Positions 14,492 through 14,554 of a stretch of 64,000 nucleotides of DNA are shown here, one piece after another. The stretch is from Octopus vulgaris. Taxonomy: Eukaryota. The stretch is taken from positions 26,784,001 through 26,848,000 of the forward strand of contig OX597817.1 in the NCBI GenBank assembly GCA_951406725.2. Reading direction: 5' to 3'. Position 1 is the first letter of the stretch. Each line of letters begins with the position of its first letter. The position numbers and the translations under genes are program-made. The notes beneath the pieces are model-generated. The model saw nothing but the letters and a program-made list of their open reading frames with translations. It was not told the DNA's origin and made no database searches.

Positions 14492-14554
14492 AAGACATCA
14501 TCAGGAGGAACCACGTCCGGTTTCGGCCCCATCTCCTCTACCGTTTTGACGTGG
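14492..14554 (-). ncRNA. Candidate non-circularly permuted hammerhead ribozyme
   Basis: Minus strand reads ccacgtc-aaaa-cgGUA-gaggag-atggggcc-GAAA-ccg-gacgtgg-ttcctc-CUGAUGA-tgtctt; all core nucleotides are present and stems I, II and III pair. Confidence 0.65.

Follow-up and report, generated by a model that had tools for sequence, protein, structure and literature searches.

The 64,000-nt stretch of Octopus vulgaris DNA analysed here (the window) contains, at positions 14428–14692 of the minus strand, a 5′-truncated copy of an RLE-type LINE that is reduced to its distal 3′ UTR and carries a hammerhead core in which stem II is split. We propose that this split-core fold cleaves itself after GUA, and that the resulting unit RNA is circularised and copied round by reverse transcriptase (RT), a reading to which we assign a probability of about 0.68. 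The window copy itself is most likely the dead product of a retrotransposition event. A broader proposal, which we favour only slightly, is that a split-core hammerhead of a seventh topology cuts and circularises the full-length coding RNA throughout a widespread clade of autonomous LINEs in animals and that rolling-circle, target-primed reverse transcription yields copies without a true 5′ end.

A hammerhead core in reversed strand order

The first-pass annotation of the window described a non-circularly permuted hammerhead core, predicted to cleave itself at 14539/14538 and located in a retroelement, and this description is likely to be correct. The sequence that it drew corresponds letter for letter to the minus strand from 14554 to 14492. 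The core consists of CUGAUGA (14504–14498), GAAA (14524–14521) and a GUA before the predicted cut. Stem I pairs 14538–14533 with 14510–14505 through five Watson-Crick pairs and one G.U pair, stem III pairs 14543–14540 with 14521–14518, and stem III is extended by seven pairs between 14554–14548 and 14517–14511; all three helices are as originally drawn. The cleavage block is followed by the GAAA block and then by the CUGANGA block, as had been claimed, which reverses the circular order CUGANGA, GAAA, NUH of hammerhead types I–III. The reported retention of CpG in the motif was also borne out, with an observed/expected ratio of 0.96 (14492–14561), whereas the window as a whole has 0.40 and the complete repeat copy 0.53.

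Two readings in canonical order were drawn by eye and discarded. One combined an upstream CUGAAGA with the same GAAA, the other combined CUGAUGA with a second GAAA near the 3′ end, and both gave broken stems. In the 3′ UTR of this family (14428–14460 and 14630–14650, minus strand), two more words resembling CUGANGA lie upstream and another GAAA hairpin sits close to the 3′ end; drawn by eye, these features gave no canonical hammerhead.

Rfam returned no ribozyme match within the window at E ≤ 1 and no hammerhead match in 12 related loci. A relaxed descriptor found at least one match in 12 of 100 shuffled versions of the window, and a single match is therefore not decisive. The case for the motif being real rests on its conservation.

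Stem II is split by a four-way junction

The original drawing fails in stem II, which had been formed between the strand before GAAA and the strand after CUGAUGA (ggggcc/tgtctt). This helix has a pair probability of 0.0 and a duplex energy of –3.0 kcal/mol, compared with –12.5 kcal/mol when the strand before GAAA pairs instead with an upstream GGCCCC. The resulting split stem II joins GGCCCC (14561–14556) to 14530–14525 through six G-C pairs and opens with G10.1-C11.1.

Families A (to which the window copy belongs), B and C share one layout, which reads X5′–hairpin A–II5′–extension–III5′ NUH–I–linker–II3′ GAAA III3′–extension–I′ CUGANGA–X3′. In the window copy, where all elements lie on the minus strand, the 5′ strand of the closing stem X (AAGACA, 14576–14581) pairs with 14497–14492 through six Watson-Crick pairs at probabilities of 0.91–1.0. 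It is followed by hairpin A (14562–14575), located between stem X and stem II, which in this copy contains a U.U mismatch and an AAAA loop compared with GAAA in most copies. The 5′ strand of stem II (14556–14561, with G10.1 at 14561) lies away from CUGANGA and is followed by the 5′ strand of the stem III extension (14548–14554) and a 4-A bulge (14547–14544). The cleavage block (14533–14543) comes next, with A17 at 14539 between its stem III and stem I strands. In the GAAA block (14518–14530), C11.1 lies at 14525 and G12–A14 at 14524–14522, ahead of the stem III strand at 14521–14518. The 3′ strand of the extension (14511–14517) then leads into the stem I strand and CUGAUGA (14498–14510) and, at the end, into the 3′ strand of stem X (UGUCUU, 14492–14497), the same letters that had been taken as the partner in stem II. 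Stem X continues outwards through pairing of 14481–14490 with 14590–14583 (probabilities 0.86–1.0).

Stem X and hairpin A thus make a four-way junction at the A9/G10.1 step. Within it, split stem II would stack on A9.G12 as in an ordinary hammerhead, and stem X would stack on hairpin A. In the window copy, nested folding, which cannot model pseudoknots, assigns probabilities of 0.01 to stem I and 0.07 to hairpin A. A sharp bend had been thought necessary between the extended stem III and stem I, a concern that is answered in part by 12 of 24 homologous motifs, in which a kink-turn pattern connects stem III to its extension; the window's family has the 4-A bulge instead. The RNA of the window may act as a dimer.

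The available text of Eckert et al. 2023 recognises six hammerhead permutations and takes the CUGANGA block as uninterruptible (PMC10085705). There are six in that scheme because the block is assumed to be unbreakable, and the present fold falls outside them for the same reason. Among open papers and preprints, we found none showing a chain opened between A9 and G10.1.

The host is an RLE-type LINE

The window copy matches 39 other genomic copies at 92–96% over about 265 nt (40 scored of 1982 candidates), and exact matches to a 20-nt anchor put family A at at least 1414 copies. Family-A copies have a common 3′ end and staggered 5′ ends. Longer copies carry upstream the end of an ORF in which RT-thumb, zinc-knuckle and restriction-like endonuclease motifs were recognised by eye, which places the motif in the 3′ UTR of an RLE LINE. 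The retroelement host proposed in the first-pass annotation is therefore upheld, while its Penelope-like or retrozyme-like nature is not. We tentatively label the element HERO-like from its peptide motifs. The motif lies about 110 nt before the insertion end. The tail and 3′ insertion end of the element occupy 14428–14480 (minus strand); in tandems, the 5′ UTR of the following unit is attached to this end without a gap.

Intact ORFs of about 1100 aa that include RVT_1 occur in the sister family B, which has a unit of 3738 nt and is related at the protein level to R2-type proteins from fish, bivalves and amphioxus. Pfam found no GIY-YIG match in the family-B ORF. Within the window there is no ORF of the LINE. 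Pfam found nothing in three broken ORF pieces, and a scan of viral contigs yielded no relative. The ORF layout, the staggered 5′ truncations and the common 3′ end are those of an RLE-type non-LTR retrotransposon.

A TA within the 5′ end of the window's LINE copy appears to be the insertion site of an abundant element bearing terminal inverted repeats (about 14688–14915). Pieces of the LINE's protein occur in short contigs of two bacterial genome records (L243–L245), most likely through contamination.

The fold is conserved across diverged families

Searching the genome with a distant protein piece revealed two further LINE families, B and C, with proteins that are 36–40% identical. Their UTRs have no significant DNA similarity and form the same fold with different letters. 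Protein alignment then gave 83 loci, 80 from metagenomes and three from genome contigs. A descriptor comprising the core and stems I and III matched these loci 40 times on the coding strand and 0 times on the antisense strand, whereas each of 20 shuffles gave 0–4 matches. In 36 of the 40 matches, from 35 of the 83 loci, the split stem II was accompanied by both stem X and hairpin A. In relaxed form, the same additional features were met by 7 of 16 shuffled core matches, and the test was repeated in a strict, zero-gap form because the relaxed features are so easily met by chance. The strict four-way junction was found in 36 of 43 core matches, against 1.59 expected when the 5′ part is shuffled.

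The first three pairs of stem X form in all of 23 non-redundant homologues, which were selected for this geometry. All 23, which were thus chosen for their pairing, have a stem III extension of 4–11 pairs, and almost every stem position is occupied by more than one type of pair. On a sequence-only MAFFT alignment of 34 motifs, stem I is paired at 94.5% and stem III at 97.7%. The two stems (14 pairs pooled) show 114 two-sided changed cells compared with 38.3 after shuffling, on an alignment that was not fitted to structure. Split stem II reaches only 59.9% because its block is out of register in many rows. The flanking stems thus covary, and stem II does so only in its split form.

The elements of a hammerhead core (CUGANGA, GAAA and NUH with A15.1-U16.1) are retained even where protein identity falls to 32%, among matches to a descriptor that itself required the core. 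A U3/A8 variant in L172–L174 represents covariation of the C3-G8 pair, a natural covariation of hammerheads according to the available text of PMC3088659. Core sites depart less from the majority than other sites among 26 family-A copies, a figure that we do not use as evidence because the comparison set includes hypervariable stretches. The motif is absent from about six long-tailed loci (L178, L208, L233, L235, L236 and L242), mostly those with the most distant proteins, and many other loci among the 83 have no 3′ UTR. We regard the existence of a conserved hammerhead-core fold as virtually certain.

The block order S-G-C could also be that of an ordinary type-SGC hammerhead with a contiguous stem II, and the five-pair stem I and short linker to stem II resemble HRIMA-1 as depicted in the available text of PMC10085705. 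In the window's family, five of the six positions of such a stem II can be drawn as pairs (three of them G.U), behind a U.C opening. Its first pair, however, forms in only 1 of 23 homologues, the contiguous helix occurs in 0 of the 40 descriptor matches, and its pairing on the 34-motif alignment is at the level of shuffled sequences (38.2% versus 39.3%). In family B, both strands of the would-be helix are C-rich. This ordinary reading appears highly improbable and, as judged from the covariation, is close to refuted. A chance resemblance in a G+C-rich repeat would be in keeping with the matches of the relaxed descriptor to the shuffled window. Against it, the motif recurs in dozens of diverged elements, only ever in sense orientation and always in the same position, and we count this explanation as refuted.

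Some copies are truncated at the predicted cut

If the split-core fold cleaves, reverse transcription of the cut 3′ piece is expected to end at the first base after the cut (+1). A pattern for family B, which picks copies that break off between –18 and +25 (44 positions), gave 49 matches, made up of 14 indels, 2 inversions and 33 truncations. Twelve of the 33 truncations begin precisely at +1 (P about 4e-12 if all 44 positions are equally likely), including one, L151, that may be a decayed full copy. Roughly 2% of family-B copies stop at the cut, as calculated from 1130 anchors with an estimated filter pass rate of 0.45. This rate fits efficient ligation, and also rare cleavage. The family-B copies that start at the cut (L124–L132 and L134–L158) are mostly flanked by T, often by AT, pointing either to a preferred target or to a very short duplication.

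In family A, 50 of 56 matches were examined and yielded 27 truncations. Seven of these lie at –2 to +1 (P about 0.003), two of the 27 exactly at +1 (P 0.15), and six at –12/–11. The signal in this family is weak, although the block ends in TA, so that A+T-rich flanks move the call. We consider cleavage in vivo very likely.

Partial tandems suggest a circular or multimeric template

Among the 30 best family-B loci with a 5′ UTR start, 29 have the tail of another copy directly upstream, with a constant junction, and the remaining locus keeps 8 nt of an upstream tail. The upstream copies run back past the upstream cut site in 22 of 29 cases and start at +1 in none (0/29). Their upstream limits vary widely, reaching more than 1375 nt beyond the upstream cut, and there is no fixed 5′ end. 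Family A shows a similar arrangement: an upstream tail is present, again with a constant junction, in 24 of 30 loci with a 5′ UTR start, two more keep 13–17 nt of it, and four begin inside the query. Here, 23 of the 24 upstream copies pass the cut site and 0 of 24 start at +1. The tandem counts include duplicated segments (seven family-A loci represent one insertion) as well as the locus of the query itself. In family A, eight of 90 distinct 3′ ends run on into the four letters that open the 5′ UTR, as would be expected if priming is internal on a continuing RNA. In nearly all copies, the cut site and the junction between tail and 5′ UTR have been copied without visible added letters. Together, these head-to-tail joins suggest a circular or multimeric template.

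Two unit-length contigs (L173 and L176) close on themselves. A 1283-nt, internally deleted contig from a run that we guess to be RNA is self-closing as well, over the cut site and over the junction, a state in which circle and tandem are indistinguishable from contigs. Its depth is 76, and none of the family's other contigs listed for this run exceeds 13; contigs from guessed-RNA runs show presence only, and not ends, strand or level.

Family B also includes internally deleted units of about 0.6–1.5 kb (L328, L330, L332, L335, L336, L341, L342 and L343). They retain the ribozyme along with the start of the 5′ UTR and the end of the ORF, sit in partial tandems too, and are possibly non-autonomous, retrozyme-like derivatives.

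In the cycle that we propose, read-through transcription of a locus with two ribozymes would release a cut-to-cut monomer, and a host ligase would close this monomer into a circle, as described for retrozymes in the available text of PMC7229834. Target-primed reverse transcription would be initiated inside the tail, at a point about 110 nt 3′ of the cut, cross the ligated cut and continue beyond one full turn to a random stop. RNA that escapes ligation would give rise to the short copies whose 5′ end coincides with the cut. Internal priming and copying round a circle would leave a fixed 3′ end, no fixed 5′ end and partial tandems. We consider it probable that a circle serves as the main template.

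Template jumping is a property of R2-type enzymes, and the main rival to a circular template combines an active ribozyme with jumping between linear RNAs. The ribozyme would then trim read-through RNA, no circle would form, and tandems would arise by jumping of the RT or from uncut multimers. The truncation evidence for cleavage needs no circle. Furthermore, L335 joins two units with different internal deletions, which points to template switching, and the two tails of one tandem are not clearly more alike than the tails of different loci. This explanation is harder to reconcile with a cut site and a junction that lack added letters in nearly all copies, with the scattered ends of the upstream copies far beyond the cut, and with the self-closing contig in the guessed-RNA run, and we judge it unlikely. 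The element might instead be a protein-binding 3′ UTR structure of hammerhead ancestry, which no longer cuts or does so too rarely to be of consequence. About 98% of family-B copies do read through the site, the peak in family A is weak, and a cut 110 nt from the 3′ end would part the ORF from the priming end unless the pieces were rejoined. Such a structure would nevertheless leave unexplained why core, NUH and A15.1-U16.1 persist down to 32% protein identity (in matches for which the core was required) together with C3-G8 covariation, and why the family-B peak sits on the single predicted bond. We deem a non-cutting or rarely cutting element improbable.

Relation to known hammerheads and retroelements

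The comparison of the proposed self-cleaving split-core fold with published permuted hammerheads supports the first reading in block order and contradicts it in the placement of stem II. Type SGC, comprising HRIMA-1 and its variants, shares the S-G-C order, the pseudoknotted stems, the short linker between stems I and II and the intact core, as far as the available text describes them (PMC10085705). There, stem II follows directly after CUGANGA and block C is uninterrupted, whereas here the 5′ strand of stem II lies upstream of the cleavage block, behind the closing stem and hairpin. SGC RNAs are drawn from metatranscriptomes, the split-core fold from genomic LINEs of animals. The first-pass annotation had mentioned permuted hammerheads from other animals, which does not agree with the available text of the same paper, where the sources are metatranscriptomes and metagenomes plus one bacterial candidate among the genomes of known organisms (PMC10085705). 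Some SGC variants in its supplement, which we compared by term search, may share the split geometry.

Several groups of retroelements resemble the LINE in part. Penelope-like elements with pseudo-LTR hammerheads (Naiad/Chlamys) share the partial tandems and a short tail beyond the repeat, and the Penelope hammerhead has been proposed to cut tandem precursors, a further likeness in the available text of PMC8557442. They encode a GIY-YIG endonuclease, whereas the LINE has an R2-group RT and a C-terminal restriction-like endonuclease. Canonical Penelope hammerheads also have the ordinary strand order, unlike the split-core fold, and Naiads are reported in that text to lack canonical hammerheads (PMC8557442). 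Of the features of Penelope elements, the LINE shows the partial tandem with duplicated 3′ end, and neither GIY-YIG nor a Penelope-type RT. Non-LTR retrozymes likewise have tandem DNA units, which are processed there by hammerheads to unit-length RNA, and their circles are most likely closed by a protein ligase, according to the available text of PMC7229834. Retrozymes are 170–400 nt long, non-coding and equipped with type I hammerheads, in contrast to this 3.7-kb autonomous coding element (PMC7229834). The LINE is thus not a short non-coding unit with a type I or III hammerhead, although deleted short units exist.

R2 and other LINEs with self-cleaving ribozymes at the 5′ end release their RNA from a longer transcript, as is predicted here too (available text of PMC13580325). 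The R2 ribozyme is of the HDV-like class (PMC3088659, available text). In R2, the ribozyme lies at the 5′ end and the template is linear with a fixed 5′ end (PMC13580325, available text); the present hammerhead is a 3′ UTR feature, and the 5′ end of full-length copies is not fixed. The HERO clade, as characterised in the available text of PMC4640811, likewise has one ORF, about 1100 aa long, in which RT motifs are combined with C-terminal endonuclease motifs, and shows dispersed, non-specific insertion; the distribution of the element's relatives in fish, bivalves and amphioxus is a further likeness. Open-access papers and preprints yielded no ribozyme or tandem mechanism for HERO and no description of circular templates in RLE LINEs. 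Neither the split topology nor a hammerhead in the tail of an RLE LINE was found in open papers and preprints.

On sequence grounds, the split-core fold is best regarded as a hammerhead-class variant in a new genomic role. A natural family in which the chain is opened between A9 and G10.1 would, if confirmed, widen the fold space of the hammerhead. The split topology would also explain why searches with descriptors and Rfam have missed these RNAs in animal genomes. RLE LINEs, which are now studied for genome insertion, would gain a route through circular coding RNA, and this route would tie them to Penelope elements and retrozymes.

Other features

The flanks of L109 and L027 contain a separate repeat in which CUGAUGA, a short hairpin and GAAA follow in canonical order, resembling a minimal hammerhead of the Penelope type. 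Within the window, two related repeat copies at 5305–5425 (plus strand) and about 6870–6990 (minus strand), which match at 67% over 179 nt and do not belong to the LINE family, pass the relaxed split-core descriptor with AUC as NUH. A U6 snRNA match at 34949–35054 (plus strand) scores above the gathering threshold and has a decayed 5′ stem; it is probably a pseudogene.
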